Assembly (NCBI GenBank): GCA_946407375.1 | Contig: CAMJNS010000004.1 | Coordinates: forward strand, 3,480 to 67,479 | Reading direction: 5' to 3' | DNA: 64,000 nucleotides | Source of the DNA: an uncultured bacterium | GTDB taxonomy: Bacteria > Muiribacteriota > Ozemobacteria > Ozemobacterales > Ozemobacteraceae | Shown here: piece by piece, positions 7,330 through 23,471 of the stretch | Layout of the letters: the number at the start of each line of letters is the position of its first letter | How positions within the stretch are numbered: position 1 is the first letter of the stretch | The notes under the pieces: model-generated | Databases searched by the model: none | What the model was told of the DNA's origin: nothing | The model's input: the letters and a program-made list of their open reading frames with translations, nothing else | Program-made: the position numbers and the translations under genes

Positions 7330-7561
7330 TTAGGAACCTTCCTGTTAATAATCCTTCGAACAACAAGGAAATCAATTATAAGATGGCTATATTTTTATTA
7401 ATTAAATATTAATATATTCATAAACTCAGATTAAGCAATCTGCTTTTTCTAAATAACGATAATAAAAGCAACCCAACCAAAAACAATCAAATCAGAGTTT
7501 TTAACCTCTGATTATTTCTGAAAATTTTCTATACTTATTTCTTATTCAAAGGGGAAACTCA

Positions 7562-8059: not shown

Positions 8060-8155
8060 GAGTTCTCTCCCCTAAAAGTTTCTTTTTTTATTATAAAGCT
8101 ATCAATACTTTAAGACAATAGAAGAGAAATAGTTTTTAGGAATTAAGATTGTTTC

Positions 8156-8417
8156 GCAAGAATTACTGTTGCGCCACCGCGAACGATGTCGCCATATGTG
8201 AAGTTTTTAGTTTTTGGTAATTGTTGTTTTTTATATAAGCTGTAAGCCTTAAGCTTAAAGCTATAAGCCAGTCATTTCAGTAATGCTTTTTTCTTGCTTG
8301 CAGCTTAAAGCTTATAACTTATAGTTTTTTTTACAATAACTACAATAAAAACTAAAAAATAAGCCTGATTGGATTCAGGATTTACTTCGATTGTGCCTTT
8401 CTTGCCCTGTTTGAGTT
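8156..8417 (-). repeat. fragmented copy of nfnB-like 3' end (two pieces, 8156-8206 and 8361-8417) interrupted by CTTNNAG heptamer repeats and a boundary (J) motif
   Basis: 8156-8199 matches 21020-21063 with 1 mismatch; 8361-8417 matches 21081-21137. Confidence 0.8.
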
Positions 8418-8418
8418 A

Positions 8419-9316
8419 TTATTTCCAGACTTTAGATTTATGTGACCAAGTTTGATTGAATTGATTATTATTGCTGTTTATAGAATTGACTATTGGTGAG
8501 AGAAAAGATTGTATTGCTGCTATTGTTTCTACTAGAGATATTTGGATAGAAGTCTTTTTCTTTTTTGCAAAGTTATTCCAGCGAGATTGTCTTGTTGATT
8601 CGCTGGCAAAATCAGGCTCAAAAGCAGCAATATCATTTAAAGCAGTATTACGGTAAGAGAAAGTTTTTTTACTGCCTTCAATAAAGTTTTTCCATCAAAG
8701 TCGAACTTAGCAAGAAAGACTATATGTCGTAGAAATCTTTGAAACGACTATTTCCATAACCTAAACTAACTATTGCTTCAAATTTTTCAGCAATGCATGA
8801 ATATATAGAATAAGCATATATATTAGGAACATCGCTATTATGCAAAAGTATCGGGTAATCTATTAATGTTTTGTCTGGGTGTATTACGTCACCAAAAGCA
8901 ATATCTATAGAAATAGGAATCTTGGTTTTATCTAAATAGGCGATAATTGAGATATTTATACCATGATACTTTCTTTGTTCGGTAATACTTTTGATTGTTA
9001 AAGTTTGTAAATTATAAATTAAAGGATCATCTGTTTTTATAGAGAAAATATTTGCAAAAGCAGATTCTATTACAGATATTTGATTACTTATATTTTGGGC
9101 GAGGAAATCAATGTCTGAGGTCGCTCGTGAGAAATTGCCATTTTCTAGTGCATATAGGAATATTCCTCCTTTTAGAATAAAATGCTCTTTGTAAGAAGAA
9201 ATAGTTAATCTGTAAATTGTTCTTTCAATGGCATAAGCAATTAGAAGCTCTTGTAGGGTTTTTCCCGAAGAAATAGATAGATTTTTTAGCTTTTCTTTTA
9301 CCGAAGTAGCATTCAT
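8419..9316 (-). pseudogene. AbiEii/AbiGii-family nucleotidyltransferase toxin, frameshifted
   Basis: ATG at 9316 overlaps the abiEi stop (TAATG). N-part has ILKGGIFLY...ATSDIDFL and stops at 8720 (..RFKDFYDI*). The expected C-terminal ~100 aa (VFLAKFDFDGKTLLKAVKKTFSYRNTA...WSHKSKVWK*) continues in another frame from 8720 to 8419. Confidence 0.7.
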
Positions 9317-9903
9317 TATAGCAACACCTCTAGATAGGTATTTATAATATTTTTGCAATTGAGTAGGTTTGCATAACGATAGAGCTTATTCAAATTACGT
9401 TTTGGAGATGCTAGATAATTTTTTAGAATTTCTTTGGTTTCTTCTATTCCTATTTTATTTCGATAGAAAATTATATCTATGACTGTTTTTTCAATATCAT
9501 AAACGTGAATTTCCTGGTTGGAATTAGTAATTGTCGTTATTCCTGTTTCAAATCTTTTTGGGGAAAAATATGTAATGTTTATAGGTGGCCAATCTGGGAG
9601 TTTAGATGTTTTGTGTGTTCTCTCTATTGCTATGTTAATTTCGTTTGGTCGTGTGGTTGTAAGATCATAATAGATTGCTGCACTGATAAGGCAGATAACG
9701 CCATTAGGAACGATAGCTGACGCATAGGCAAAGTCTGAATCTTCACCTAGATAGTTATTATTTATGTATAGGCTAGTATTAAGTTTAGACAATTTACCTT
9801 CAGCAATAAGCTTATGAGTTAGATAATTTGAGATAGATAGGTTTCTTAGCTCTTTTGTGGTATAGAATTTCTTCTTGTTAGAAAGCAAATTGTTGATATT
9901 CAT
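9316..9903 (-). CDS. AbiEi-family antitoxin/transcriptional regulator (type IV TA)
   Basis: 195 aa; N-terminal wHTH-like segment (YTTKELRNLSISNYLTHKLIAEGKLSKL); position and coupling upstream of AbiEii. Confidence 0.6.
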   Translation of the reverse strand: MNINNLLSNKKKFYTTKELRNLSISNYLTHKLIAEGKLSKLNTSLYINNNYLGEDSDFAYASAIVPNGVICLISAAIYYDLTTTRPNEINIAIERTHKTSKLPDWPPINITYFSPKRFETGITTITNSNQEIHVYDIEKTVIDIIFYRNKIGIEETKEILKNYLASPKRNLNKLYRYANLLNCKNIINTYLEVLL

Positions 9904-9953
9904 AGGTTACAACCTCTATAAATAATTATAATGAAAGCCACATAAATTTCAAT

Positions 9954-9987
9954 AATTTTCTGCACTTAATAAAATATGCAGAAAATT
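9954..9987 (-). promoter_or_regulatory. candidate AbiEi operator (inverted repeat) in the abiE promoter region
   Basis: AATTTTCTGCA-N12-TGCAGAAAATT, 50-85 nt upstream of the abiEi start; a third CTGCA half-site at ~9998. Confidence 0.25.
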
Positions 9988-10145
9988 TTTATAAAAACTG
10001 CATTATTATTTAGACAACAAAATTCTTATTCTCTAATCTCTTGGCTCTTATCTCAAAAAATACAAGGAACAATACGACGTAGTAATCTAAACTCCGATTA
10101 AACAATAACTACAACAAAAACCAACTACAATAAAAACTAAAAAAT

Positions 10146-10213
10146 AAGCCTGATTGGATTCAGGATTTACTTCGATTGTGCCTTTCTTGCCCTGCTTGAG
10201 TTCTGGCAAGCAA
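10146..10213 (-). repeat. partial copy of nfnB-like 3' end
   Basis: Matches 21081-21148 with 1 visible mismatch; preceded by the same J-motif junction (..CTACAATAAAAACTAAAAAAT|AAGCCTGATTGG) as the copy at 8361. Confidence 0.85.
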
Positions 10214-10424
10214 GATAGATATATTTGATGAAGATGTTACAAAAGGAGTTGTTAAGAGTTTAAACTTTATTATTCCATCAGTTGAATATAAGGGAGGAAC
10301 AAGCAATTTTTTTGCTGCTCGTTGTATTGACATAGACAGAGACGGAATTACAGAATTAGTATTTGAAGGTGATTATGATAATGAAACAACAAAAAACTCT
10401 GCTATTATCGTAAAATTGAAATAA
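10200..10424 (+). pseudogene. orphan 3' gene fragment (DxDxDG-loop containing), no start codon
   Basis: Open frame from an in-frame TGA (10197) to TAA (10422-10424): ..IDIFDEDVTKGVVKSLNFIIPSVEYKGGTSNFFAARCIDIDRDGITELVFEGDYDNETTKNSAIIVKLK*. No ATG/GTG/TTG. Followed by a terminator. Confidence 0.3.
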
Positions 10425-10455
10425 AAAAGCTAAAAAAATATTGTTTCCACTTATT

Positions 10456-10497
10456 CACCGCTTGGAGTTTAAATAACTTCGGGCGGTGTTTTTTTTT
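10456..10497 (+). terminator. rho-independent terminator
   Basis: CACCGC..GCGGTG stem followed by T9. Confidence 0.6.
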
Positions 10498-10573
10498 CTA
10501 TTTATTTTATTCTGCCATTTATATTGCCATTTGGTGGCGTAATAAATGGTGAGATAAATCAAGCTAATAAAAT

Positions 10574-10604
10574 TAATTTGTGTCACCACTGGTGACACAA
10601 ATTA
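10574..10604. repeat. perfect 14-bp-arm palindrome
   Basis: TAATTTGTGTCACC-ACT-GGTGACACAAATTA. Confidence 0.8.
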
Positions 10605-10700
10605 GTTGGACTAATCTTTTAATAATGCCAGTTGGTAACTCTTGTTTTGAAAGCTAATTAAGACAACAAAAACAAAAACTACCAACTACAATAAAAACAG

Positions 10701-10734
10701 AAAAAGCGGTTAGACTAATGCTAACCGCTTTTTC
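10701..10734. terminator. bidirectional hairpin terminator following boundary motif J3
   Basis: AAAA-AGCGGTTAG-ACTAATG-CTAACCGCT-TTTTT; near-identical copy at 20343-20371. Confidence 0.6.
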
Positions 10735-10741
10735 TCATGTT

Positions 10742-10987
10742 TCAATTTATATTTGCTTCGTCAAAGTCTTTTTCAGAAATTCCAGTTAAATCCATTATTT
10801 CTTTTTTGTTTTTTCCTTTTAAAAGCATATTTTTAATTATTTCTTTTATTCCTTCTTTTTTACCTTTCTCATAGGCACTTCCGCGCATAAGGCTAAGAGC
10901 TATAAGACTGTTTTCTCTGTCTTCCATTCTTGCACGCATTTCTTTATCTGAATTTGATTTTTTGACACAATTTACAACTTCTGTCAT
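10742..10987 (-). pseudogene. C-terminal remnant of an Rpn-family (PD-(D/E)XK, YhgA-like) recombination-promoting nuclease/putative transposase
   Basis: Tail ..EKGKKEGIKEIIKNMLLKGKNKKEIMDLTGISEKDFDEA resembles Rpn C-termini; far too short for a full gene; matching N-terminal remnant at 11483-11575. Confidence 0.4.
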
Positions 10988-11089
10988 ACCGTCCTCACTT
11001 TCAATTTCAGAAGGTATCTTTGAATCTTTTGAAGCAAATTTCTTACTATTATACAGCAGATAAACCCATTTCTAACAATAATTTTTATT

Positions 11090-11479
11090 CGTCATTGCGA
11101 GCAGTCGTAAGACTGCGTGGCAATCCAGATATTTACTATTTCAAATTATAGAATTTTCCAATATAAATCTACCCAATTAGGATTTAGGCTTTCGATAAGT
11201 TTCAATTTATATTTTCTTGATCTAGCTTTAATTTGTTTTTCTCGTTCAATGGCATTATTGATATTGTCGTATTCCTCAAAATAACCTAACTTATCGACAG
11301 AATATTTTTTAGTAAAACCTTCATATAGTTTATTTTTATGTTCATAGACTCTACGTATTAAATCAGAAGTTGCTCCTGTATAAAGAGTTCCATTTCTTTT
11401 ACTGAACAAGATGTAAATATAACTGTTTTTATTCATATTATTTTTATCTAGATTGCCACGCCTTCGGCTCGCAATGACG
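11090..11479. mobile_element. GIY-YIG cassette bounded by inverted hairpin repeats (candidate small mobile unit)
   Basis: Left end CGTCATTGCGAG-CAGTCGTAAGACTG-CGTGGCAATC (11090-11126). Right end GATTGCCACG-CCTTCGG-CTCGCAATGACG (11451-11479), in inverted orientation. The unit sits between the two remnants of one Rpn-like gene. Confidence 0.4.
11146..11436 (-). CDS. GIY-YIG nuclease family protein (small stand-alone, UPF0213/YhbQ-like)
   Basis: 96 aa; SYIYILFSKRNGTLYTGATSDLIRRVYEHK ... EREKQIK. Confidence 0.88.
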   Translation of the reverse strand: MNKNSYIYILFSKRNGTLYTGATSDLIRRVYEHKNKLYEGFTKKYSVDKLGYFEEYDNINNAIEREKQIKARSRKYKLKLIESLNPNWVDLYWKIL

Positions 11480-11482
11480 TTT

Positions 11483-11575
11483 TTAGTTTAAAGTGTTTTT
11501 ATTAGACTCTTGACCAAAAACAGCTTTGAATAGGAAATCATTTGTTAGTCCAAAAAATTTTGTTTCTTTTTCCAT
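11483..11575 (-). pseudogene. N-terminal remnant of the Rpn-family nuclease gene
   Basis: MEKETKFFGLTNDFLFKAVFGQESNKNTLN* matches the conserved Rpn N-terminus (..TND..FK..FG.E.NK..L); the frame is cut by the hairpin repeat at 11479. Confidence 0.4.
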
Positions 11576-11703
11576 AAGAAAACCTCTTTTGATTAAAAAT
11601 ACGTGCATAAAATTTTAATCTGCACATATAGTAATCAACCGAAAACGGAAAAATGGACAAAAAAAGTGTAAAAAAATAATTTTTTTTGTTGTGGTTGTTT
11701 TTA

Positions 11704-11898
11704 GTAAATAAAACCTATGAAAATTTTTGGGATTGCCACGTTACTACGCATACTACGTATGCTTGTAATGACATATGGCTTGCGGTTTCACAATGACGGT
11801 TACGGTAGAGACTAAGGTTTTCTTTGATTCGGTCATCCCTCCGACTTGCTACGCAAGTCACCTCAGCGACTCGCTGACCTCCTGTCGCTCGCTTGCAC
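11704..11898 (+). repeat. ~195-bp direct repeat, copy 1 (copy 2 at 20381-20573)
   Basis: Copies differ only by a 2-nt indel and one substitution that I can see; the repeat contains a GATTGCCACG hairpin module plus further short hairpins. Confidence 0.9.
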
Positions 11899-11952
11899 TC
11901 CCAACCTCCTGTTGGTCGTCTAATCTCTTATCTCTGCTCTCTTTAAAAACTG

Positions 11953-11987
11953 GATTGCCACGGCTTCTACGAAGCCTAGCAATGACG
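11953..11987 (+). repeat. hairpin repeat element (GATTGCCACG-GCTTCTACGAAGC-CTAGCAATGACG)
   Basis: Conserved ends with an element-specific inner 5-6 bp stem. Confidence 0.8.
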
Positions 11988-12051
11988 AAATGGCAGAGAC
12001 TATCTTTATCGACAATAAAAACAATAACTACCGACTACAATAAAAACATAT

Positions 12052-12091
12052 AAAAAAATAGGTTAAGCTGAAAGCTTAACCTATTTTTTTT
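12052..12091. terminator. bidirectional terminator just downstream of the displaced nfnB 3' fragment
   Basis: A7-ATAGGTTAAGCT-GAA-AGCTTAACCTAT-T7. Confidence 0.65.
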
Positions 12092-12096
12092 ATTAC

Positions 12097-12320
<224 letters not shown>

Positions 12321-12349
12321 TTGAAGAGGAAAAGTTGAGGTAAGTATTT

Positions 12350-15034
12350 ATGTCTGATTTGTCTGTTTTTTATATATTAGATCTTTCTGAAAGTATGAAA
12401 GGTGAAAAACTTGATATACTTAATCATACTGTTGAAGAATGTAACGAAACCTTATTAGAATTAGCAAATGAAAAGAACGCTGAATTAAAAGTGGCAATGA
12501 TGACATTCTCAGATGGCTGTGACTGGATAACTCCACACGGACCAGAACCTATAGAAGATTTTGCTTTTAATTATTTTCAAAATACAAGTGGCTTGAGTAA
12601 TCTAGGTATTGCATTATATGAATTAAATAAAAATATTACAGACATAAATTTTTATAATATTTCTTCAAAAGATTACTTACCAGTAATAATTATTATAACA
12701 GATAAAGACAATATAGATAATTATGAAAACATTCTAAAATTTGTTAAAACAAATAATATTTATGAAAACTCTATAAAAATAGCTTATACCATAGGCAACA
12801 ATCAAAATACAGAATTATTATCTTATATTACAGATAATAAAAATTCAATAATTACTAAAAGCAATGAGAATTTTAGGGAAATTATTAAAATATTTGGAAA
12901 AACTACAAGTCAAAATAATAAAGAAATAATAAAAAATCAAATAAGAAAATTAATTCAAAAAAAGCAGTATGAAGAAGCAAAAGAATTAACCAAAGAATTA
13001 GGTAACGAAAAAGAATCTTATGAAAATGTAATTCTTGGTTGTATGTATATTGTTGGCAAAGGTGTGGAAAAGAATTACGAAGAAGCAGTTAAATATGCCA
13101 AGTTAAGTGCTGAACAAGGAAACCCTCTAGGACAATGCTTGCTGGGGCAATGTTATTATTTTGGTAATGGTGTGGAACAAAATTATGAAGAAGCTTTTAA
13201 ATACTTCAAGTTAAGTGCTGAACAAGGAGATTCAGCAGGACAAATGCGGTTAGGAATTTATTATCTTTATGATAATGGGATAGAACAAAATTACGAAGAA
13301 GCTTTTAAATATTTCAAGTTAAGTGCTGACCAAGGAGATTCAGATGGACAATGGGCTCTTGCTAAATATTATTATGAGAACAGTGTGAAACAGAATTACG
13401 ATGAAGCTTTTAAATATGCCAAGTTAAGTGCTGAACAAGGAAACCCTCTAGGACAATGCTTGCTGGGGCAATGTTATTATTTTGGTAATGGTGTGGAACA
13501 AAATTATGAAGAAGCTTTTAAATACTTCAAGTTAAGTGCTGAACAAGGAGATTCAGATGGACAATGGGTTCTTGCTGAATATTATTATGGTAACAGTGTG
13601 AAACAGAATTACGAAGAAGCAGTTAAATATGCCAAGTTAAGTGCTGAACAAGGTAATTCAAATGCACAATGTTTGTTGGGGAAATGTTATTATTTCGGTA
13701 ATGGTGTAGAGCAAAATTACGAAGAAGCTGTTAAATATTTCAAATTAAGTGCTGACCAAGGTAATTCAAATGCACAATGGGCTCTTGCTGAATATTATTA
13801 TGGTAATGATGTGGAACAAAATTATGAAGAAGCTTTTAAATATGCCAAGTTAAGTGCTGAACAAGAGAATTCTCATGGGCAATGCTTGTTGGGGCAATGT
13901 TATTTATTTAGTAATAGTACAGAACAGAATTACGAGGAAGCTTTTAAATTATTCAAGTTAAGTGCTGAACAAGGAGATTCAGATGGACAAAAGTGGTTAG
14001 GTATTTGTTATCTTAATGGAATTGGTATAAAACAGAATTACGAAGAAGCTTTTAAAAATTTCAAGTTAAGTGCAGAAAAAGAAAATGCTCACGGGCAATG
14101 CTTGTTAGGGCAATGTTATTATTATGGGAATGGTGTAAAACAGAATTACGAGGAAGCTTTTAAATATTTCAAGTTAAGTGCAGAAAAAGGACACGCTCAC
14201 GGACAATGCATGTTGGGACAATGTTATTATTATGGTAATGGTGTTGAAAAGAATTACGAAGAAGCCTTTAAATATTTTAAGTTAAGTGCGGAACAAGGAG
14301 ATTCAGATGGACAAAAGTGGTTAGGAATCTGTTATTATGATGGTGATGGTGTAGAAAAGAATTATGAAGAAGCTTTTAAATATGCCAAGTTAAGTGCTGA
14401 ACAAGGGAATTCTCATGGGCAATGCTTGTTGGGGCTATGTTATTCTTTTGGTAATGGTGTAAAACAGAATTATGAAGAAGCTTTTAAATACTTCAAATTA
14501 AGTGCTGACCAAGGGAATAAACTAGGACAACGTTATGTTGGATTCTTATGTTACTATTATGGACAAGGCATTAAAGCAAATAATGAGGAAGCTTTTAAGT
14601 ATATGAAGTTAAGTGCTGACCAAGGGGATAGCTTTTCACAATATTGGATTGGATCAAATTATTATGATGGTTTTAATGTTAAACAAAATTTTGAAGAAGC
14701 TTTTAAATACTTAAAACTCAGTGCTGACCAAGGAGAAAATCTAGCGCAATATAATCTTGGTAAGATGTATTATAATGGCGATGGAATACCTAAAAATTAC
14801 AAAGAAGCATTTAAATATATGAAGTTAAGCGCTGACCAAGGTAATGCTGATGGACAATATGAAGTTGGAAAAATGTATTTAGATGGCATAGGTGTAAAAA
14901 GAAACCAGGAAGAAGGAATAAGATACATTAAATTAAGTGCAGATCAAGGTAATTTAACAGCAAAAGGGTATTTGATAAGATCAAATATAACCAAGGGTTT
15001 CTTAAATGCAATTGGTAATATTTTTAAAAAATGA
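12350..15034 (+). CDS. vWA domain protein fused to ~18 Sel1-like (SLR) repeats
   Basis: 894 aa. N-terminal vWA with MIDAS DxSxS (FYILDLSESMKG) and a VIIIITD strand. From ~aa 205, an array of 35-36-aa units (NYEEAFKYFKLSAEQGDSDGQ..LG.CYY.GNGVEQ). Confidence 0.85.
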   Translation: MSDLSVFYILDLSESMKGEKLDILNHTVEECNETLLELANEKNAELKVAMMTFSDGCDWITPHGPEPIEDFAFNYFQNTSGLSNLGIALYELNKNITDINFYNISSKDYLPVIIIITDKDNIDNYENILKFVKTNNIYENSIKIAYTIGNNQNTELLSYITDNKNSIITKSNENFREIIKIFGKTTSQNNKEIIKNQIRKLIQKKQYEEAKELTKELGNEKESYENVILGCMYIVGKGVEKNYEEAVKYAKLSAEQGNPLGQCLLGQCYYFGNGVEQNYEEAFKYFKLSAEQGDSAGQMRLGIYYLYDNGIEQNYEEAFKYFKLSADQGDSDGQWALAKYYYENSVKQNYDEAFKYAKLSAEQGNPLGQCLLGQCYYFGNGVEQNYEEAFKYFKLSAEQGDSDGQWVLAEYYYGNSVKQNYEEAVKYAKLSAEQGNSNAQCLLGKCYYFGNGVEQNYEEAVKYFKLSADQGNSNAQWALAEYYYGNDVEQNYEEAFKYAKLSAEQENSHGQCLLGQCYLFSNSTEQNYEEAFKLFKLSAEQGDSDGQKWLGICYLNGIGIKQNYEEAFKNFKLSAEKENAHGQCLLGQCYYYGNGVKQNYEEAFKYFKLSAEKGHAHGQCMLGQCYYYGNGVEKNYEEAFKYFKLSAEQGDSDGQKWLGICYYDGDGVEKNYEEAFKYAKLSAEQGNSHGQCLLGLCYSFGNGVKQNYEEAFKYFKLSADQGNKLGQRYVGFLCYYYGQGIKANNEEAFKYMKLSADQGDSFSQYWIGSNYYDGFNVKQNFEEAFKYLKLSADQGENLAQYNLGKMYYNGDGIPKNYKEAFKYMKLSADQGNADGQYEVGKMYLDGIGVKRNQEEGIRYIKLSADQGNLTAKGYLIRSNITKGFLNAIGNIFKK

Positions 15035-15071
15035 GTTTTATTAATTTGTTTTTTCATTAAGGATATATGAT

Positions 15072-18000
15072 ATGGCAAACGACTTAGTTAAACAAAATAA
15101 ACTTATAGATAATTTAAATAAAATAGCATACACCATAGATAAAGCATATATGGCAAAATTAGATTCTGAGTATGCAGTTATACCTTTTGATGTTTTACAC
15201 AATAATAAAGATAATAGTGTTTCCTATAAACATAATATTAGAGCCTTAAAAATAGACAAGTGGGTTTTTGATAGAGATGAAAACCCTGGCAAATGTTTTA
15301 AAAACGTATTAAATGCCTTTGCAGATGGTGATCATACATTAGCACTTGTAGTAAAAAGAACTCCAACAGAAACACAAATGTATTTTGTTGTTAAAAATGA
15401 AGGCGAAGGTAGAGCATTAACTACTAAAACCAATCTTAATCTGCTAGAAGATACTATTACTGGCAATTTTCAGGGAACAAAAGCAGAAAAAATAATTAAT
15501 GAAAATAAATTAGAAGATATTTTTTCTTTTGAAAAAAACATTAGTTCTATTGCCTTAATGACTAATACTCCATCAGAATATACAGAAGATTATATCGGTC
15601 AAGGTATAGACAAGCTTTTAAATGGCGTAGTTCCAGAAAATGAATTTGAAAGTTATACTGTTGTTTTTCTTGCTGAATCCTTATCTCCAGAAAGTTTAAT
15701 GCAAATATTGTCTGGTTATGAAGAAATGGCTACAGCTATAAGCCCATTTGAACAACAACAATTTCAAATAGGAAAATCGACAACTTCTACAAAAGGAGAA
15801 AGCTATTCTGAAACTATTGGTGAAATGACTTCTTTAACCAATTCAGAAAGTACTAGTGATTCTATTTCTAAGACACATTCTGTAAATATAGGTTTAAACG
15901 GTGGAATTAATTATGGTAATACTGAGAATCGCTCATTAAATTTAAGTAAAATTTGTGATGATATTAAAGATAATTGGGAAAAAAATAAAAGTAAAGGTTG
16001 GAAAACAGCTGTTATATCTGTAGCAGGAAGTGGTTTGATAACAGCTGTTATCAATAGTTTTAGTACAAATGTTGGTTTATCTGGTGGTTACGGATATAGC
16101 TGGGGTAATACAAAAACTGACACAACAGGTGTATCTAAAACCGTTGGCAACAACAATAGTGAGACAACAGGAACAAGCACTAGCCTTGCATTAGGAGAAA
16201 GCGAAAACACTACTTTTTCATATAAAAATTATAAAATAAGCAATATGCTTGAAAAGCTTAAACTTACAATGGACCGAATAAACAAAAGCAAGGCAACAGG
16301 CTTATGGAAGTTTTCCACTTATATTATGTCTGAAAAAGCTAAAACAACAAAAAATATAGCCAATATTTTAAAAGGCATTACCCAAGGGAAAAATTCATAT
16401 ATAGAACCTGCTTTTATTCAAGAATGGACAAATTTAAATCCTAAAAAAGAGATTTTTTCGGAAATAAGAAAATATTTACATTTTTTTACTCATCCTGTTT
16501 TCTTTACTGCAGACCAGGAACTGAATAACGCAATGGCTGTAACGCCAACTTCTTTTGTTGCTACAGACGAATTATCAAATGTTATAGTTTTCCCTAAAAA
16601 ATCATTACAAGGATTGCCTGTTTTGCAGGGAACACAATTTGGTCGAGAACCTCATTCTTTATTAGATGCAAAATACGATTTGCTTTTAGGAAAAGGTTAT
16701 CATATGCATCAAACTTATCAAAAGCAAGAAATTTCTATTTCTTCAAATGATCTGCTTAACCACACTTTTGTTACAGGCTCAACTGGTGCTGGTAAATCTA
16801 ATGCTATTTATCAACTTTTGGAACAAACAACAAAATTAGGAGTTCATTTCCTTGTTATAGAACCAGCTAAGGGGGAATATAAAAGCTTTTTCGGTAAAAG
16901 AGATGATGTAAAAGTTTTTGGAACAAACCCCTTATTAAAAGATATTCAATTATTAAGAATAAATCCGTTCAGTTTCCCTATAGAAAATACTCATATTTTG
17001 GAACATTTAGACAGACTTGTAGAAATATTCAATGTTTGCTGGCCTATGTATGCTGCGATGCCTGCTGTTTTAAAAGATGCCATAGAACAGGCTTACATAA
17101 ATGCTGGTTGGGATTTGACCAAATCTGAAAATAAATATGACAACAGAATTTTCCCGACATTTGCAGATGTTTTGAAAGAAATAAAAAATGTAATGAATAA
17201 TAGCGAATACTCTGATGAAAATAAGGGTAATTATTCTGGAGCATTACAAACGAGATTGAAATCTCTTACTAACGGTATAAACGGTCAGATATTCTCAAAT
17301 GATTCTATTTCTGATGAAGAATTATTCGATAAAAATGTAATAATAGATTTAAGCAGAGTTGGCTCTACAGAAACAAAAGCTTTAATAATGGGACTTTTGA
17401 TTTTGAAACTACAAGAACACAGAATGGCTAGTCCTGAAATTAACTCTGAATTAAAACATATTACTGTTATTGAAGAAGCTCATAATCTATTGAAGAGAAC
17501 ATCTACAGAGCAGGTTTCCGAAAGTTCAAATCTTTTAGGAAAATCTGTAGAAATGCTTGCAAACGCAATAGCAGAAATGAGAACTTATGGTGAGGCTTTT
17601 GTTATTGCTGATCAGTCACCAGGATTACTTGATATGTCTGTAATCAGAAATACCAATACAAAAATAATATTAAGACTTCCTGATTATTCTGACAGAGAGT
17701 TAGTAGGAAGAGCTGCTGGCCTTAACGAAGAACAGATAATTGAACTTGGAAGACTTGAAAAAGGTGTAGCAGTAATTAGACAGAATGATTGGCTTGAACC
17801 TGTTTTGTGCAAAATTGATAAATTTAATGAAAGCAAATATTCCAATAATAATAAATCTAACAATAGTTTTAATCTGTCTAATGATAGCATTAATGAATCT
17901 GTATCTAAAGCTCTTGTGGAAGCTATAATGACAGGTAAAATCAATAATATTGAAGAAAACGTATATGAGCTTAATGAATTAAAAGAACTTATAATAAAAT

Positions 18001-18323
18001 CAAATCTTGAGACTGCTATAAAATGTGAATTTATTAATTGTCTTTTAATAAAAGACCACAATTTATCTGCTTTAACAACTCTTTGTTATGACTTTTTTCA
18101 TGCTTCAAAAGCGGTAGAATTAGCAAAAAAATGTGGCAATATTGAAAGTTGGAGTCAGTGCTTAACTTCAAATCTTGTTCCGAATGTAGAAAGTTATAAT
18201 AATGAGCAAATAAACAGATTGTTAGCTTTAATTGTTATTGAAATCAAAAACAGAGACCCTTTTTACAATAAACTCTTTTGTCGATTTACTGAGGTTTATA
18301 AAGAAAGGGGTAGTATTTTATAA
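15072..18323 (+). CDS. large HerA/FtsK-superfamily (DUF87-like) P-loop ATPase with novel N-terminal region and one hydrophobic helix
   Basis: 1083 aa. Walker A FVTGSTGAGKSN, Walker B HITVIEEAHNLL, FVIADQSPGLLD and NTNTKIILRLP. S/T/G/N-rich segments (aa ~230-390) flank TAVISVAGSGLITAVINSF. Confidence 0.75.
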   Translation: MANDLVKQNKLIDNLNKIAYTIDKAYMAKLDSEYAVIPFDVLHNNKDNSVSYKHNIRALKIDKWVFDRDENPGKCFKNVLNAFADGDHTLALVVKRTPTETQMYFVVKNEGEGRALTTKTNLNLLEDTITGNFQGTKAEKIINENKLEDIFSFEKNISSIALMTNTPSEYTEDYIGQGIDKLLNGVVPENEFESYTVVFLAESLSPESLMQILSGYEEMATAISPFEQQQFQIGKSTTSTKGESYSETIGEMTSLTNSESTSDSISKTHSVNIGLNGGINYGNTENRSLNLSKICDDIKDNWEKNKSKGWKTAVISVAGSGLITAVINSFSTNVGLSGGYGYSWGNTKTDTTGVSKTVGNNNSETTGTSTSLALGESENTTFSYKNYKISNMLEKLKLTMDRINKSKATGLWKFSTYIMSEKAKTTKNIANILKGITQGKNSYIEPAFIQEWTNLNPKKEIFSEIRKYLHFFTHPVFFTADQELNNAMAVTPTSFVATDELSNVIVFPKKSLQGLPVLQGTQFGREPHSLLDAKYDLLLGKGYHMHQTYQKQEISISSNDLLNHTFVTGSTGAGKSNAIYQLLEQTTKLGVHFLVIEPAKGEYKSFFGKRDDVKVFGTNPLLKDIQLLRINPFSFPIENTHILEHLDRLVEIFNVCWPMYAAMPAVLKDAIEQAYINAGWDLTKSENKYDNRIFPTFADVLKEIKNVMNNSEYSDENKGNYSGALQTRLKSLTNGINGQIFSNDSISDEELFDKNVIIDLSRVGSTETKALIMGLLILKLQEHRMASPEINSELKHITVIEEAHNLLKRTSTEQVSESSNLLGKSVEMLANAIAEMRTYGEAFVIADQSPGLLDMSVIRNTNTKIILRLPDYSDRELVGRAAGLNEEQIIELGRLEKGVAVIRQNDWLEPVLCKIDKFNESKYSNNNKSNNSFNLSNDSINESVSKALVEAIMTGKINNIEENVYELNELKELIIKSNLETAIKCEFINCLLIKDHNLSALTTLCYDFFHASKAVELAKKCGNIESWSQCLTSNLVPNVESYNNEQINRLLALIVIEIKNRDPFYNKLFCRFTEVYKERGSIL

Positions 18324-18988
18324 TGTTTGAAAGTATTGGTAAAATAGTAGAAGTAGCTGAGACAGCAGCAAAAGAAGTTGCTGCTAATGTTGAAAAGATT
18401 GTTCCCGAAAGTGGTATTAGTCTAAAAGAAGCTGATGAATACTGGAACAAGTTTTTTGCTCCTAAAAACAATATAGAAAAGAAATCTACTGATAGTTTCT
18501 CTAATAACTATTATGATGATAACAATGAAGTTTATCGAAAAGGTAATGATTTGGTTCCCAATCATGATTATGAAATAAACGGATACAAATATCATACTGA
18601 TGAAATTGGTAGAATATCTTCGGCAGAGGGTAATTTACATTTAAAAGATAGAGAGGGGCGTCTTCCAATAAAAGATTCTATTGAAAACATTGGGAAAGGC
18701 TATGAATTACCTAATGATGATAGAGGGCATCTTATTGCCGACCAGTTTGGCGGCTCTAATGGCTTAGAAAATCTGATTCCACAAGATGCAGAAGTAAATA
18801 GAAAAGATTTTATGAATTTTGAAAACAAACTTGCTAATGAAGTTAAGAATGGTAATGAAGTTTATATAAAAAATGAGCCTAATTATGAAGGTAATTCTAG
18901 AAGACCAAGTGAATTTATTGTAACTTATTCTGTGAATGGCACTGAAAATATAAGGATTTTCCCAAATGGCAAGGAGATTAATAAATGA
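18323..18988 (+). CDS. DNA/RNA non-specific endonuclease toxin (Endonuclease_NS_2 type, EsaD/YeeF/YqcG-like) with short helical N-terminal region
   Basis: 221 aa; NDDRGHLIADQFGGSNGLENLIPQDAEVNRKDF motif; start overlaps the ATPase stop (TAATG at 18321-18325). Confidence 0.7.
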   Translation: MFESIGKIVEVAETAAKEVAANVEKIVPESGISLKEADEYWNKFFAPKNNIEKKSTDSFSNNYYDDNNEVYRKGNDLVPNHDYEINGYKYHTDEIGRISSAEGNLHLKDREGRLPIKDSIENIGKGYELPNDDRGHLIADQFGGSNGLENLIPQDAEVNRKDFMNFENKLANEVKNGNEVYIKNEPNYEGNSRRPSEFIVTYSVNGTENIRIFPNGKEINK

Positions 18989-19314
18989 AAAATATAATGA
19001 ACGAAGAAATATACCAAAAAATATGCGATATTTTAGTTAATGTGTTGCCTGAAAAATGGGAAAATATAGTTTTTAAAGCCGAATATGGTGAAGAAAGCTA
19101 TGAAATGAAATATTGGGTCGATTCAGGAAATGGAGAGCTTAAAGACTGTTTTGAGTTAGCTGTTGTTCCCAAATCACAGATGGTGAAAACTTTTATAGCT
19201 TTAAATAAAGTTATTGCACCAGAACGAAATGCATTAGAACCAAAGCACAAATGGAAAATAATGACACTAAAGGTTTCTTCAAAAGGGAAATTCAACGCTG
19301 ATTTTGAATATTAA
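18985..19314 (+). CDS. cognate immunity protein, DUF600 (EsaG/YezG)-like
   Basis: 109 aa; ATGA overlap with the toxin stop; AAGGAG RBS. The size and the WENIVF..EYGEESYEMKYWV...KWKIMTLKVSSKGKFNADFEY pattern resemble DUF600 immunity proteins. Confidence 0.55.
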   Translation: MKNIMNEEIYQKICDILVNVLPEKWENIVFKAEYGEESYEMKYWVDSGNGELKDCFELAVVPKSQMVKTFIALNKVIAPERNALEPKHKWKIMTLKVSSKGKFNADFEY

Positions 19315-19358
19315 ATGTGTTGTTAGAATAGAAAATATTTATTAGGAGAGCAAAATAT

Positions 19359-19796
19359 TTGAAAGTATATTTGGATAATTGTTGTTTCAATAGACCTTAT
19401 GATGACCAATCTTATATCAAAATATCATTAGAATCAAAAGCCAAGCTTTATATACAGAATTTAATAAGAAAGAAGAAAATAGATTTAGTTTCTTCATACA
19501 TGATTCTATATGAAAATGGTCTAAATCCATTTTCTATGAGGAAAAATCCAATAAAAGAATTTATCAATAAAAACACATCTCTTTTTATTCCTTATGAAAA
19601 ACATGTTATAATTGAAGAAATGGCATTAGAAATAATGAATACAGGAATAAAATATAAAGATGCCTGTCATGTCGCTTGTAGTTTGTTAGGACAATGTTCT
19701 TATTTTATTACTACAGATAATAGGTTACTTAAATACAAAAATAGTAATCTCAAACCGATTAATCCTATTGATTTTGTAAGAAATTTGGAGGAATAA
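19359..19796 (+). CDS. PIN-domain ribonuclease toxin
   Basis: 145 aa; TTG start with AGGAG RBS. Acidic residues are placed as in PIN (VYLDNCCF, ..EE.., KDACHVA, ITTDNRLL). Confidence 0.65.
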   Translation: MKVYLDNCCFNRPYDDQSYIKISLESKAKLYIQNLIRKKKIDLVSSYMILYENGLNPFSMRKNPIKEFINKNTSLFIPYEKHVIIEEMALEIMNTGIKYKDACHVACSLLGQCSYFITTDNRLLKYKNSNLKPINPIDFVRNLEE

Positions 19797-19797
19797 A

Positions 19798-20031
19798 ATG
19801 GAAGCTAATACTGTTGAAATTATGAATAAAGGTATGAAATGCTTACTTGATAATCTAGGAATAGTAGAAGCAGAATATTTTATTTCTACTGTTATTAGGG
19901 AAAAATTTGATTACACTAAGTGGCAACAAGAGTATTTTGATAAAATTCCACCAAATGAATTAAATGAGAAATTAGCTGATTTTGCTAAAAATTACAAATT
20001 TGAGGGCAATCCAGAAGTATTACTCAAATAA
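19798..20031 (+). CDS. small partner protein of the PIN toxin (putative antitoxin, downstream position)
   Basis: 77 aa; starts 1 nt after the PIN stop; LGIVEAEYFISTVIREKFDYTKWQQEYF pattern recalled from small proteins paired with this PIN subfamily. Confidence 0.4.
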   Translation: MEANTVEIMNKGMKCLLDNLGIVEAEYFISTVIREKFDYTKWQQEYFDKIPPNELNEKLADFAKNYKFEGNPEVLLK

Positions 20032-20194
20032 TTTTTTATTATCTAGATTGCCACGGCGTTTTCAACGCCTCGCAATTGACGCATGACAGAGACCAAGGGT
20101 TTACTCTAGTTCGGTCACCCTCCCTTTTATTACTTCCCTCAAGGGAGGGCTTATGACAATCACACCAACCACAGCCTACGCCAGTAAAACCAAA

Positions 20195-20223
20195 AGACAC
20201 TTGCGAGTAGCAAGTGTCTTTTT
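20195..20223 (+). terminator. hairpin terminator within the mosaic
   Basis: AGACACTTGC-GAGTA-GCAAGTGTCT-TTTT; variant copy at 20654-20683. Confidence 0.5.
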
Positions 20224-20342
20224 AAGATTAAACCTAAGTTATAAAAATCCCCCAGTCACCGATTGCTTCGCAATCACCCCTCCTCAAGGAGAGGCTTTAG
20301 GACAATAAAAACCACAAAAACCAACTACAATAAAAACAAAAA

Positions 20343-20371
20343 AGCGGTTAGATTAATGCTAACCGCTTTTT
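20343..20371. terminator. hairpin terminator after boundary motif J5
   Basis: AGCGGTTAG-ATTAATG-CTAACCGCT-TTTTT. Confidence 0.55.
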
Positions 20372-20380
20372 CTCTTCTAA

Positions 20381-20573
20381 GTAAATAACCTATGAAAATT
20401 TTTGGGATTGCCACGTTACTACGCATACTACGTATGCTCGTAATGACATATGGCTTGCGGTTTCACAATGACGGTTACGGTAGAGACTAAGGTTTTCTTT
20501 GATTCGGTCATCCCTCCGACTTGCTACGCAAGTCACCTCAGCGACTCGCTGACCTCCTGTCGCTCGCTTGCAC
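20381..20573 (+). repeat. ~195-bp direct repeat, copy 2
   Basis: See 11704-11898. Confidence 0.9.
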
Positions 20574-20653
20574 GCCGCCATCCTTGGCGGTAGCCCTCTA
20601 GTGGAGGCTTTAGGACAATCACACCAACAACACATAAAATCAATAAAAATAAA

Positions 20654-20683
20654 CGACACTTGCTATTTGCAAGTGTCGTTTTT
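20654..20683 (+). terminator. hairpin terminator within the mosaic
   Basis: CGACACTTGC-TATTT-GCAAGTGTCG-TTTTT. Confidence 0.5.
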
Positions 20684-20952
20684 GATTAAATCTAAGTTAT
20701 TAAAATCCCCCAGTCAGCAAAGCTGACATCCCCCTTTATGAAAGGGGGTAGATTGCTTCGTCGCTATGCTCCTCGCATTGACGTATTGTCTGGCTTAGAG
20801 CTTTATAGCTTGAAGCTTACAGCTAAATTTTAAAATCCCCCTGTCAGCAAAGCTGACATCCCCCTTTATGAAAGGGGGTAGATTGCTTCGTCGCTATGCT
20901 CCTCGCAATGACGTATTGTCTGGCTTAGAGCTTATAGCTAGAAGCTTACAGC

Positions 20953-22440
20953 TTATTTCAAGTATTTTTCCTTGAGGTATTTATCCATACCAGCGGCGGC
21001 TCGGCGGCCGTCACCCATGGCAAGAATTACTGTAGCGCCACCGCGAACGATGTCGCCACCAGCGAAGATTTCTTCCATAGAAGCCTGATTGGATTCAGGA
21101 TTTACTTCGATTGTGCCTTTCTTGCCCTGTTTGAGTTCTGGCAAGCAAGAAGGAATCAATGGATTTGGAGAAACGCCGATAGCAACTACTACTATATCTA
21201 CGTCTAGTTCTTCGATTGCGCCTGGGATTTCTACTGGTCTGCGTCTGCCAGAAGCATCTGGTTCACCCAATTCCATCTTCTGCAAGCGAACTTTGGCAAC
21301 TCTGCCGTTTTCGCCAGCGATGTATTCGATTGGGTTGTGAAGAGTCATAAATTCAACGCCTTCTTCTTCAGCGTGTTTGACTTCTTCAAGACGGGCTGGC
21401 ATTTCATCTCTAGAACGTCTGTAAACGATGATTGATCTATCAGCACCAAGTCTCTTAGAGGTTCTTACAGAGTCCATAGCGGTGTTACCACCACCAACGA
21501 CTACAACAACTTTGCCTTTAAGAACTGGAGTGTCAGTGTCTTCACGGTTAGCACCCATGAGGTTTACACGAGTGAGGTATTCGTTAGAAGACATAACGCC
21601 GTTGAGGTTTTCACCAGGAATATTCATGAAGTTCGGGAAACCTGCACCAGAACCAACATAGAAAGCCTTGAAGCCCTGAGCCTTCAAATCATCAAATGTA
21701 GCGGTTTTTCCAACAACGAAGTTCTTTTCGAACTTAACGCCCATCTTAGAAAGGTTGGCAAGTTCCAAATCTACGATTGAGTTTGGAAGACGGAATTCAG
21801 GAATACCATATTTGAGAACGCCGCCGATTTCGTGGAGAGCTTCGAATACAGTTACATCATAACCAGCTTTTGCCATATCGCCAGCAAAAGAGAGTGCTGA
21901 TGGACCTGAACCAACTGCGGCAACCTTGATGCCGTTTTTCTTTTCCATTTTTGGAAGTTTGGGTTCGATGCCGTTTAAGCGTTCATAGTCAGCAGCAAAT
22001 CTTTCAAGATAGCCAATAGCTACAGCTGGTTTCTTCATCTTGAGGTAAGTGCACTTGGATTCGCATTGTTTTTCCTGTGGGCAAACACGACCGCAAACTG
22101 CTGGAAGAGCACTGAATTCTTTTAATGTTGCAGCAGCTTCTTCAAATTCGCCGCGTTCAATGTTTTTAACAAACTTTGGAATGTTAATGCCTACTGGACA
22201 ACCTTCAGTGCAAGGGTGATTGGGGCAATCCATACAGCGGGTTGCTTCTAATACAGCCTGTTCTTTGGTTAAACCAGTGTTAACTTCGATAGTCTGTGAT
22301 TTAATGCGTTCTGCTGGAGCGATTTCGTTCATCTTCACTCTTTCAATAGCAGTGCGTTCTTTCATCGGAGTCTTGTTGCGGAGTTCTTCTCTCCAGGTTT
22401 CTTCTCTGTCTTTTGCAAAAATATCATTCATATCTGACAT
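20953..22440 (-). CDS. nfnB: NADPH-dependent glutamate synthase small-chain family oxidoreductase (NfnB/SudA-type; often annotated gltA/gltD)
   Basis: Two Cys clusters (CMDCPNHPCTEGCPVGINIP; CGRVCPQEKQCESKC). Two dinucleotide folds (VAAVGSGPSALSFAGD; VVVVGGGNTAMD). I prefer ATG at 22440 (MSDMNDIF..), 20 nt after the nfnA stop, over the ORF-track start at 22503. Confidence 0.85.
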   Translation of the reverse strand: MSDMNDIFAKDREETWREELRNKTPMKERTAIERVKMNEIAPAERIKSQTIEVNTGLTKEQAVLEATRCMDCPNHPCTEGCPVGINIPKFVKNIERGEFEEAAATLKEFSALPAVCGRVCPQEKQCESKCTYLKMKKPAVAIGYLERFAADYERLNGIEPKLPKMEKKNGIKVAAVGSGPSALSFAGDMAKAGYDVTVFEALHEIGGVLKYGIPEFRLPNSIVDLELANLSKMGVKFEKNFVVGKTATFDDLKAQGFKAFYVGSGAGFPNFMNIPGENLNGVMSSNEYLTRVNLMGANREDTDTPVLKGKVVVVVGGGNTAMDSVRTSKRLGADRSIIVYRRSRDEMPARLEEVKHAEEEGVEFMTLHNPIEYIAGENGRVAKVRLQKMELGEPDASGRRRPVEIPGAIEELDVDIVVVAIGVSPNPLIPSCLPELKQGKKGTIEVNPESNQASMEEIFAGGDIVRGGATVILAMGDGRRAAAGMDKYLKEKYLK

Positions 22441-22460
22441 AATTTTATTCTCGCTTTCTA

Positions 22461-23273
22461 TTAGAGTTTTGCCTTGGCTTCGTCTTCTTCTGCTTTGTAG
22501 CATCTTAAGCGAGAAAGCATTTCGTCAAAGTCGATCTGGTGAGCGTCAAATTCTGGACCGTCAACGCATGTGAATTTGGTCTTTCCGCCAACGGTAACAC
22601 GACAAGCACCGCACATACCTGTTCCATCAACCATAATAGTGTTAAGGCTGCACTGAGTTGGAACGTTGTATTCTTTAGTCTTGAGGGCTGCAAACTTCAT
22701 CATGATTGCAGGACCGATAGCGATACATTCATCAACTTTTTCGCGCTTCATGACCATTTCAGCACCAACAGTAACATTACCCTTATTACCATAAGAACCG
22801 TCGTCAGTCATTATTATAACTTCATCAGAGTATTTGCGAAGTTCATCTTCAAGAATGATGAGGCTTTTGGTTCTAGCGGCAAGAACAGTGATAACTCTGT
22901 TGCCAGCTTCTTTGAAGCCTCTGACTATTGGAAGCAATGGAGCGTTGCCAACACCGCCGCCAAGAGCCAAGAAAGTGCCGACTTTCTTGATATCAGTTGG
23001 TTTGCCAAGTGGGCCAACCAAGTCAGTTAAACAATCTCCAACTTTCATATCGCAGAATTTAGTGGAAGAATAACCAACTTTTTGAGCGATGAGCATAATT
23101 GTGCCTTTTTCTTTGTCGGTATCGACGATGGTAAGAGGCATTCTTTCGCCCTTTTCGCTGATTCTTAGAATGATGAAATTCCCTGGCTTGTGTGACTTAG
23201 CAATCAAGGGAGCTTCAACGATGAACTTGAAAACGTTTTCTGAAAGCTGTTCTTTTTCAACTATTTTATACAT
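22461..23273 (-). CDS. nfnA: sulfide/dihydroorotate dehydrogenase-like FAD/NAD-binding subunit (NfnA/SudB, PyrK-like)
   Basis: 270 aa; C-terminal 2Fe-2S motif DGTGMCGACRVTVGGKTKFTCVDGPEF; adjacent to nfnB. Confidence 0.85.
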   Translation of the reverse strand: MYKIVEKEQLSENVFKFIVEAPLIAKSHKPGNFIILRISEKGERMPLTIVDTDKEKGTIMLIAQKVGYSSTKFCDMKVGDCLTDLVGPLGKPTDIKKVGTFLALGGGVGNAPLLPIVRGFKEAGNRVITVLAARTKSLIILEDELRKYSDEVIIMTDDGSYGNKGNVTVGAEMVMKREKVDECIAIGPAIMMKFAALKTKEYNVPTQCSLNTIMVDGTGMCGACRVTVGGKTKFTCVDGPEFDAHQIDFDEMLSRLRCYKAEEDEAKAKL

Positions 23274-23471
23274 TTCGTTCTCTCAAACTAGTTTTAGTTT
23301 TTCTATAGTAACGAAAGCTAGATAAAGATTCTGTTAAAAGAATCTTTGAGGGCTAACGGATTTTTAGGGGTTAGGGAGAAGGGAGGAGGGAGGAGGGAAT
23401 TGTTTTAGCCAAGAATGTTTTTCGCTATTCTTGCTTTTTACTGTTAATTTTCTTTTTAAGACTAACCTCTA

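Follow-up and report, generated by a model that had tools for sequence, protein, structure and literature searches.

The DNA considered here is a stretch of 64,000 nucleotides (nt) of an uncultured bacterium of the family Ozemobacteraceae (assembly GCA_946407375.1, contig CAMJNS010000004.1, positions 3,480 to 67,479), referred to below as the window. It is AT-rich (GC content 33.6%), and the closest genomes are metagenome-assembled genomes (MAGs) labelled Candidatus Avigastranaerophilus (90% at the amino acid level) and 'Candidatus Riflebacteria' (99%); Avigastranaerophilus is a member of the Gastranaerophilales (Melainabacteria). Our subject is the 12.8-kb region 8156-20952, which lies directly downstream of the gene pair nfnAB and in which pieces of the 3' end of nfnB are interspersed with cargo genes. 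We give an even chance to the reading that this region is a variable island, carrying defence and toxin genes, that recombination built without an integrase. The adjoining gene pair consists of:

20953-22503, minus strand: intact nfnB/gltD/sudA-like gene, an open reading frame (ORF) of 516 codons with Fer4_20 and Pyr_redox_2 domains; the anchor of the island
22461-23273, minus strand: nfnA/sudB-like partner gene with DHODB_Fe-S_bind and FAD_binding_6 domains

By their domains, the two genes form a pair of the NfnAB/SudAB/GltD type. For comparison we used contigs from other samples or assemblies, designated L003, L036, L081, L082, L083, L165-L168, L175, L176, L181 and L183; nfnA is kept beside nfnB in all relatives. 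The likely start of NfnB is M22, which gives a protein of 495 residues ending in ..KEKYLK; an identical 495-residue protein is encoded in L081 and L082. Positions in nfnB are given below as g, the number of nt counted from the last base of the stop codon (20953). A BLASTN search with 20600-21500 as query against the whole window detected four partial copies, all on the strand of the gene:

12097-12276, minus strand: copy C, a complete displaced 3' end (g0 to g175/179) with the variant terminus ..KEKYNL
10146-10215, minus strand: copy B (g128-g197), matching 21081-21150 with 98.6% identity over 70 nt, E 1e-29
8361-8417, minus strand: copy A (g128-g184), matching 21081-21137 with 100% identity over 57 nt, E 3e-24
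8156-8207, minus strand: copy A', decayed (g67 to ~g118), matching 21020-21071 with 88.5% identity over 52 nt, E 2e-13

A search for repeat families recovered the copies as families D3, D5 and D7, in agreement with BLASTN. The core common to all copies comprises 48 nt (g128-g175) and holds a 5-bp inverted repeat with a 6-nt spacer. A preliminary description of this DNA had listed four partial nfnB ends on the gene strand, at essentially the positions given here. It had ascribed to copy C synonymous changes, a different final dipeptide and a terminator of its own, to A and B a fusion to an AT-rich motif at the same junction, and to the region a series of cargo modules with AbiE, GIY-YIG debris, a vWA operon and a PIN pair. 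All these observations were confirmed: the copies by BLASTN of the window and the repeat search, the features of C by translation, alignment and a hairpin, the common junction by a shared 80-nt repeat, and the layout by domain scans.

Copy C is the most complete one. BLASTN aligned 12106-12276 with 20962-21132 (g9-g179; 97.1% over 171 nt, E 4e-79), the solid homology stopping at 21128 (g175) and not at 21132. The copy encodes the same 55 residues as the intact gene and is identical to it over 123 nt; its three internal nt changes are all synonymous, the end is ..YNL versus ..YLK, and the stop codon at 12097 is its own. An allele comparison of C, the intact end and the relatives, intended to find the foreign end, was uninformative, as there are only three variable sites. 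A terminator and then the cargo flank the copy:

12052-12090, minus strand: terminator hairpin of copy C, an 18-pair stem and T run, then a repeat termed D2
12350-20031, plus strand: six-gene cargo; the same module adjoins the nfnB end in L167 (94% DNA identity)
12350-15034, plus strand: vWA/Sel1 gene of this cargo
15072-18323, plus strand: HerA/DUF87 ATPase gene of this cargo
18323-18988, plus strand: Endonuclease_NS_2 gene of this cargo
18985-19314, plus strand: YezG-like immunity gene of this cargo
19359-19796, plus strand: PIN-like gene (weak match) of this cargo
19798-20031, plus strand: gene for a 77-residue protein of this cargo

The vWA/HerA cargo is bounded by direct repeats of the gene 3' end, namely copy C and the intact end, and the gene is restored. 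Both junctions of the cargo recur in independent contigs of other samples. In the MAG contig L168, the 5' part of the vWA gene (97% identical) is joined to nfnB at g175, as in copy C. L167, which stems from another sample, holds in positions 1-6931 the six-gene cargo (94% identical DNA), after which come one Z-type repeat, a segment termed Y and the nfnB stop; therefore, the vWA/HerA cargo sits beside nfnB in a second strain. The role of copy C as a displaced complete gene end is thus supported: it marks the far side of the vWA/HerA cargo, which abuts the intact end. From this comparison, the junction of copy C appears to be older than the split from the L168 lineage.

Regarding the cargo itself, PADLOC gave for the six-gene module no named defence system beyond 'HerA' (E 1e-18 for the HerA-type ATPase). 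This ATPase comprises 1083 residues, the N-terminal 540 of which are without known match; more than 200 homologues exist at ~55% identity, a few of them labelled Clostridium or Marvinbryantia. With AbiEi/AbiEii, the HerA-type ATPase and Endonuclease_NS_2 next to the YezG-like protein, the region shows the clustering expected of a defence island.

The remaining three copies surround the AbiE genes:

8419-9903, minus strand: AbiE module, with AbiEi at 9316-9903 and an AbiEii pseudogene at 8419-9358
10082-10145, plus strand: D2 repeat (repeat family D2) between AbiEi and copy B
8208-8360: insert of 153 nt between A and A', resembling a miniature inverted-repeat transposable element (MITE), with D2-type inverted ends

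Copy B is fused to D2 at g128 and to a truncated plus-strand gene at g197, copy A to a shortened D2 at g128 and to the end of AbiEii at g184. Both belong to a repeat of 80 nt (8338-8417 equals 10123-10202, 99%), which includes the identical join of 21081 (g128) to the AT-rich D2. Because of this identical junction to D2, A and B are most probably copies of each other, that is, duplicates of one junction; in both, the last 42 codons and the stop (g0-g127) are absent. The well-matching part of A' comprises ~40 nt. As judged from the alignments, A/B and A' would represent the two sides of one older displaced nfnB copy, split between g128 and ~g118. The ends of the 153-nt insert at this place match each other over only ~12-24 nt (by reading the sequence); a clear target-site duplication was not seen at g128/g118, where ~9-13 nt of nfnB are missing instead. 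The A' junction (..ACCAAAAACTAAAAACTTCACATAT joined to GCGACATCG) is common to L166 and L083. The right junction of the insert also occurs in L166, within a much longer displaced nfnB fragment, and may be older than the split from the L166 lineage.

In L166, which stems from another sample, the order is as follows: a DUF4417 cargo gene, an nfnB fragment of 1.04 kb (window 22146-21109, 94%) that abuts the cargo gene at ~g1193, a 295-nt insert with D2-type inverted ends, the A' junction, the rest of the gene up to ..YLK and stop, a repeat of the 199-nt type, and a terminator with D2 of the copy C type (3129-3187, 95%). The nfnB piece of L168 stops, on the side opposite to the vWA gene, at g128 and is fused there to D2 as in A and B. 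A second, decayed unit of L168 lies beside the terminator and 'GCCATTT' repeat that are found to the right of B in the window, and a helix-turn-helix gene and a RhuM gene lie between the two units. A string of orphaned 3' fragments on the same strand, downstream of the intact gene and with cargo in between, is found in the window and also in L166 and L168. The gene-internal boundaries of the fragments differ, being g175 for C, g184 for A, g197 for B and ~g1193 for L166, so that there is no constant crossover position; each boundary abuts a gene end or promoter (AbiEii stop, truncated plus-strand gene, vWA upstream region).

Could the arrangement be an artefact, in which island variants of co-occurring strains were strung together via shared repeats, so that the four copies never occur together in one genome? 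The contig appears to be metagenome-assembled, and L082, L083, L003 and L036 end in or near the repeats or inside nfnB. However, all exact repeats are shorter than 141 nt (134, 123, 72) and can be spanned by ordinary reads or k-mers, each junction type was confirmed in at least one independent sample, and the population must in any case contain the shared core with four different left and four different right neighbours. The junctions in question recur in L168, L167, L083 and L166, all of them assemblies independent of the window; L083, from another sample, is 99.6% identical to window 1-8367 and holds the left flank, A', the insert, D2 and the start of A, into which it runs by 7 nt. Given the shortness of the exact repeats and the presence of every junction type in an independent sample, gross misassembly is unlikely, and we regard a chimera of strain variants as very unlikely.

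Around nfnAB, synteny is not conserved in the relatives compared; nfnAB alone matches. L081 and L165 carry nfnAB genes 94-96% identical to those of the window, with a single gene end (..YLK and stop) that is followed by Y and a terminator hairpin, beyond which the window, L081 and L165 all diverge. In L081, Y precedes a Z-type repeat, in L165 a different terminator hairpin without the D2-like spacer. The downstream cargo of L165 is of the conflict type (AAA_23, MC2, CTD6, DUF4417). The intact end ..YLK with the Y flank has the same arrangement in L081, L165 and L167; therefore, the working end is in an ordinary chromosomal context and not beside element DNA. Scanning metagenomes with the last 77 residues of NfnB gave, among the matches listed, only distant relatives (at most 81%) and no new haplotypes; scans of viral sequences with the nfnB end, the shared core and a D2 18-mer gave nothing relevant.

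As an observation on the anchor itself, nfnAB with its promoter region (20953-23794) shows 91-96% DNA identity and 97-100% protein identity to L081, L165, L003 and L036, which have no other gene in common with the window on either side. This means either unusual conservation of the operon in heavily rearranged surroundings or exchange of the operon itself among lineages. Several assemblies of close relatives break within nfnB, namely L003 at residue 404 of NfnB, L036 at residue 251, and a contig of P0002 after ..EEIFAGGD. If the lineage frequently contains displaced nfnB fragments that vary in length, such breaks are to be expected.

Duplicated gene ends beside cargo call to mind classical serial integration, in which a tyrosine or serine recombinase inserts elements whose attP carries the nfnB 3' end, and the integrase genes are lost or located elsewhere. 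Gene-end direct repeats do flank cargo while the gene stays intact, all copies contain the 48-nt core with its short inverted repeat, and three boundaries cluster within 22 nt. On the other hand, Pfam, PADLOC and weak-hit scans of the ORFs from 105 to 55491 of the window, the island included, revealed no recombinase or transposase domain, and no integrase was seen downstream of nfnB in the available sequence of L081, L165 and L167. The boundaries differ, one lying ~1.2 kb into the gene; A and B, being without stop codon, could not restore the gene; the flank of the intact end is the one typical of the lineage's chromosomes; and L081 and L165 have no second gene end in the sequence seen. There is also no tRNA gene in the window and no Rfam family in the island. 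We therefore disfavour the integrase model, as neither a recombinase nor a fixed crossover nor a gene end supplied by an element was found, and rate it as distinctly unlikely.

This bears on what the preliminary description had proposed. Its statement that no integrase is present holds for the ORFs scanned. Its four nested copies are real as fragments but do not seem to be independent, A and B being probable duplicates and A/B plus A' the probable halves of one copy. Similarly, growth of the island at the gene 3' end is marked by the copies and their junctions occur in other samples, yet the copies would record about two displacement events plus later local ones rather than four integrations. 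The idea that successive elements each restored the gene must be given up for A and B, in which the last 42 codons and the stop are missing and the D2 junction is identical; an integrase-type mechanism is disfavoured by the missing recombinase, the four different gene-internal boundaries and the lack of a structured att-like site. The fallback offered there, homologous exchange of flanks or duplication instead of an integrase, is the better reading.

The second feature that recurs at the junctions is D2, a lineage-specific AT-rich repeat of ~45 nt, which reads ACAATAAAAAC, ~14 nt, ACAATAAAAAC (GTTTTTATTGTAGTTGGT..TTATTGTC in gene orientation). Besides the copy near AbiEi, the window contains:

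8327-8360, plus strand: D2
10643-10701, plus strand: D2
11992-12050, plus strand: D2
20282-20340, plus strand: D2
20136-20194: D2-like
20595-20653: D2-like

Exact copies in the window are restricted to the island and to the plus strand; with up to two mismatches, 14 matches were counted in the window, whereas 1.9 were expected. Each copy in the window is preceded by a hairpin and T run, all in one orientation. The idea that D2 always targets hairpins was nevertheless rejected: true of all window copies, it applies to only about half of the copies overall. D2-type terminal inverted repeats enclose the AbiE genes in L183 (54 nt, 91%; 9412-9465 and 10819-10872) and the insert of L166 (26 nt, 88%). 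From these repeats, D2 may also be the end of a family of non-autonomous mobile units, and a transposon-type account of the recurrent D2/g128 junction is therefore conceivable. A mobile D2-ended transposon or MITE would have been inserted after the small hairpin at g131-g146 and would then have taken variable lengths of nfnB, along with cargo (for example AbiE), to other places of the island, with a transposase acting in trans. This account draws on the inverted repeat around the AbiEi/AbiEii' module of L183, on the D2-type inverted ends of the 295-nt insert in L166 and, by reading, of the 153-nt insert between A and A', on the position of D2 upstream of AbiEi in the window, L181 and L183, on the same D2/g128 junction at A, B and unit U2 of L168, each with a different distal end, and on the nfnB hairpin plus D2 T run, which scores as terminator-like, as do five other hairpin-D2 sites. 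What speaks against it is that no cognate transposase for D2 units was identified in the ORFs scanned, that the good D2 copies in the window all have the same orientation and do not form inverted pairs, that a convincing hairpin precedes D2 in about half of the cases in relatives, and that copy C, a complete gene end with a cargo junction free of D2, is left unexplained. We hold this account to be unlikely, but worth keeping in view.

D2, with or without 48-70 nt of nfnB, could also be the site at which an integron-like cassette system recombines, with the enzyme encoded elsewhere; the AbiE, RhuM and GIY-YIG/PDDEXK units would be captured and shuffled at D2, and the nfnB piece would merely hitch-hike. 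The units of D2 plus nfnB in A, B and L168 show no significant single-strand fold (z -1.3 to +0.5 versus shuffled sequences). We consider such a system highly improbable.

Nearly all dispersed repeats of the window fall in the island, many of them in the spacer next to the gene:

20035-20952: repeat-filled spacer from the cargo to the nfnB stop, with Z1, T-D2, a 199-nt repeat, Z2 and a tandem X-Y duplication
11703-11901: 199-nt repeat, second copy at 20380-20576 (98%); related copies in L166 and L081
20136-20258 and 20595-20716: Z-type repeats, made up of a small hairpin, a D2-like spacer and a terminator hairpin
20686-20953: tandem X-Y duplication of a 130-nt unit (94%), directly after the nfnB stop

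In the X-Y unit, X is a hairpin resembling repetitive extragenic palindromic (REP) sequences and Y reads CCCCCTTT.TAAAGGGGG..; only one Y follows the nfnB stop in L081, L165 and L167. The collinear order of T-D2, 199-nt repeat and gene end had suggested two whole nfnB-downstream haplotypes in tandem; this idea was dropped because L167 lacks the T-D2 and 199-nt block beside nfnB and because both repeats occur elsewhere in relatives.

Given such repeats, the island could have arisen by purely local rearrangement, i.e. by tandem or segmental duplications of the nfnB 3' region, deletions and unrelated insertions of cargo, without horizontally acquired DNA being linked to the gene end. A tandem duplication of 1.8 kb and a later internal deletion would account for the A/B pair, the 98% identity of the 199-nt repeats and the identity of C to the gene over 123 nt suggest recent intragenomic copying or gene conversion, and a 130-nt unit is indeed duplicated in tandem at 20686-20953. 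But the last codons and the whole flank of C are not those of the intact end, the interval between these two ends is exactly where the vWA cargo sits, this cargo is located beside nfnB in other strains at 94-97% identity, and relatives of the cargo occur in other genomes and on plasmid-like contigs. Local events alone are in our opinion quite unlikely to account for the island.

We return to the reading given at the outset, recombination at nfnB without an integrase, for which we infer the following mechanism and order of events. Incoming DNA from related strains or plasmids would pair with the highly conserved nfnAB genes (91-96% DNA identity) on one side, whereas the other side would be joined illegitimately, either by homology-facilitated illegitimate recombination or by a single crossover of a circular fragment carrying an nfnB piece. 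If the illegitimate join falls inside the recipient nfnB, the donor would provide the working 3' end and the recipient's own 3' end would be left beyond the new cargo; only products with a complete nfnB would persist. Displacement may have occurred at least twice. An old event would have produced a long fragment, into which a small D2-ended element was later inserted at g128/g118 and which was trimmed to B/A and A'; a later event would have brought in the vWA/HerA/nuclease module and left copy C. The fragments could then have served as direct repeats for homologous recombination or tandem duplication, which would give the A/B pair around AbiE; this pair could stem from an integrated AbiE circle on which the unit resided, or from a tandem duplication of 1.8 kb and a subsequent deletion. 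Likewise, the hybrid unit of L168, with its D2 junction of the A/B type on the left and its vWA junction of the C type on the right, could be the product of a crossover between a copy with the D2/g128 junction and a copy of the C type. The positions of the presumed illegitimate joins are variable (g175 to ~g1193); no donor sequence across a junction was found. The displaced ends encode the same NfnB C-terminus and no alternative functional modules, and the cargo is unrelated to nfnB.

Several points weigh against this reading. Three of the four boundaries lie within 22 nt (g175-g197), which is tighter than expected for random joining along a 1.5-kb gene. The identical D2/g128 junction at three places (A, B and unit U2 of L168) requires secondary recombination or duplication, and it could instead reflect targeted insertion. 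A recombinase encoded elsewhere in the genome could act in trans. No empty site was found among the relatives, nor a donor haplotype in which the vWA cargo has another left junction. Finally, the order of the copies on one molecule rests on a single short-read-type assembly.

A comparison with known systems helps to place the island. Genomic islands that encode an integrase accrete in tandem at the 3' end of tRNA or protein genes. As in those islands, 3'-end direct repeats bound cargo here, the gene is intact and the oldest material would lie farthest from it; in contrast, there is no integrase and no constant crossover, two copies are without stop, and the working end keeps its chromosomal flank. 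Defence hotspots without integrase are located between core genes, and their content is exchanged by homologous recombination of the flanks. The window resembles them in its defence and toxin-antitoxin cargo between housekeeping genes, with content differing among the window, L081 and L165. Simple flank exchange, however, does not give duplicated gene ends, which in our case would have been left by one-sided or single-crossover events. With MITE- or palindrome-associated elements the island shares AT-rich D2 ends that are inverted around units of 153 nt, 295 nt and 1.35 kb, often beside a hairpin; it differs in that neither a target-site duplication nor a cognate transposase was identified and in that most D2 copies of the window are solitary and in one orientation.

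The closest parallel may be that to rhs loci and to effector-immunity arrays of type VI secretion systems (T6SS), for whose orphaned 3' ends homology-facilitated illegitimate recombination without an integrase has been proposed (Kirchberger et al. 2017, PMC5361080); C-terminal displacement at rhs loci goes back to Jackson et al. 2009, as cited in PMC5361080. As in these arrays, the conserved upstream part of a gene would be the homologous anchor beside which new DNA is added, older 3' parts end up downstream as a row of orphans on the same strand, and an integrase is absent. Here, however, a housekeeping redox enzyme, and no polymorphic toxin, is encoded by the anchor gene; the displaced ends do not encode alternative toxin domains but nearly equal the working end; the cargo genes (AbiE, vWA/HerA, a nuclease/immunity pair) have no relation to the anchor; and the orphan fragments seem to be reused as repeats. 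What would be new is thus integrase-free displacement at a housekeeping anchor; by analogy, this kind of process is already known from rhs and T6SS loci. Integron cassette arrays, a parallel also drawn in PMC5361080, are similar in their serial cargo, a recurring short unit (D2 with or without the nfnB piece) and older units farther out, and dissimilar in that the island has no intI in the ORFs scanned, no attC-like fold and no unit boundaries at a fixed base.

Most accounts of island growth at gene 3' ends involve integrases, and integrase-free hotspots are usually scarless. In this island scars survive and match between strains of different samples, which makes them a readable record of how defence cargo was built up beside a conserved housekeeping operon. 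If our reading is true, any very conserved gene can be a landing anchor, and leftover fragments become repeats that drive later gain, loss and reshuffling; the logic of the rhs and T6SS arrays would thereby be extended to a non-toxin gene. It also calls for caution, as not every duplicated gene end is an att site.

As to the modules between the copies, AbiEi is intact, while AbiEii is full-length with one nonsense mutation and one frameshift and ends right at copy A (PADLOC: E 5e-76 and 6e-68 for AbiEi and AbiEii). Relatives of the module were found in L181 (89%), L175 and L176 (84%) and L183 (80%). In L181 it lies beside the same terminator and GCCATTT repeat as to the right of B in the window, but without B; in L183 it lies inside the inverted repeat, each arm of which consists of a hairpin and D2. 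L175 and L176 are plasmid-like contigs of 10-11 kb with Rep_3, ParA, LytTR, SLFN/AlbA_2, an AbiJ-like gene, intact AbiEi and AbiEii and one D2. They are probably small plasmids of the same lineage, and plasmids of this kind are a plausible source pool for the cargo of the island.

Between copies B and C lies debris of several genes:

10216-10488, plus strand: 3' gene fragment and terminator abutting copy B, with ..DIDRDGITELV..; FG-GAP/VCBS-like by eye, no Pfam match
10742-11573, minus strand: debris with an 81-residue ORF, a GIY-YIG gene and a PDDEXK_2-like fragment
10742-10987, minus strand: the 81-residue ORF, no significant Pfam match
11146-11436, minus strand: the GIY-YIG gene (96 residues), flanked by inverted hairpin repeats
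11480-11573, minus strand: N-terminal fragment of 30 residues, PDDEXK_2-like (PD-(D/E)XK transposase-like), weak match, E 0.0025

An assignment of the 81-residue ORF as an Rpn-type C-terminus was discarded, the likeness being by eye only. At 11085-11485 the GIY-YIG gene lies between inverted copies of a REP-like hairpin (..GATTGCCACG..CGCAATGACG..); this segment looks like a small mobile GIY-YIG unit, which appears to sit inside a broken nuclease or transposase gene of the PDDEXK_2 type.

Both flanks of the locus are of housekeeping character. The left one encodes an EPSP-synthase-like protein, a deaminase, rpiB, an ABC ATPase and a protein of 165 residues, the right one an NAD(P)HX dehydratase, HPr kinase, CofD, a penicillin-binding protein and others. 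The first core gene past the island is:

7562-8059, minus strand: gene of the 165-residue protein, in a flank that is 99.6% identical in L083

Two further repeats of the window are unrelated to the island. Tandem repeats of ~87 nt occur at 53635-53888, inside the ORF 53569-55491, and an imperfect palindromic repeat region of ~290 nt (57560-57850) is 68% self-complementary, with related copies in L165 and L168.

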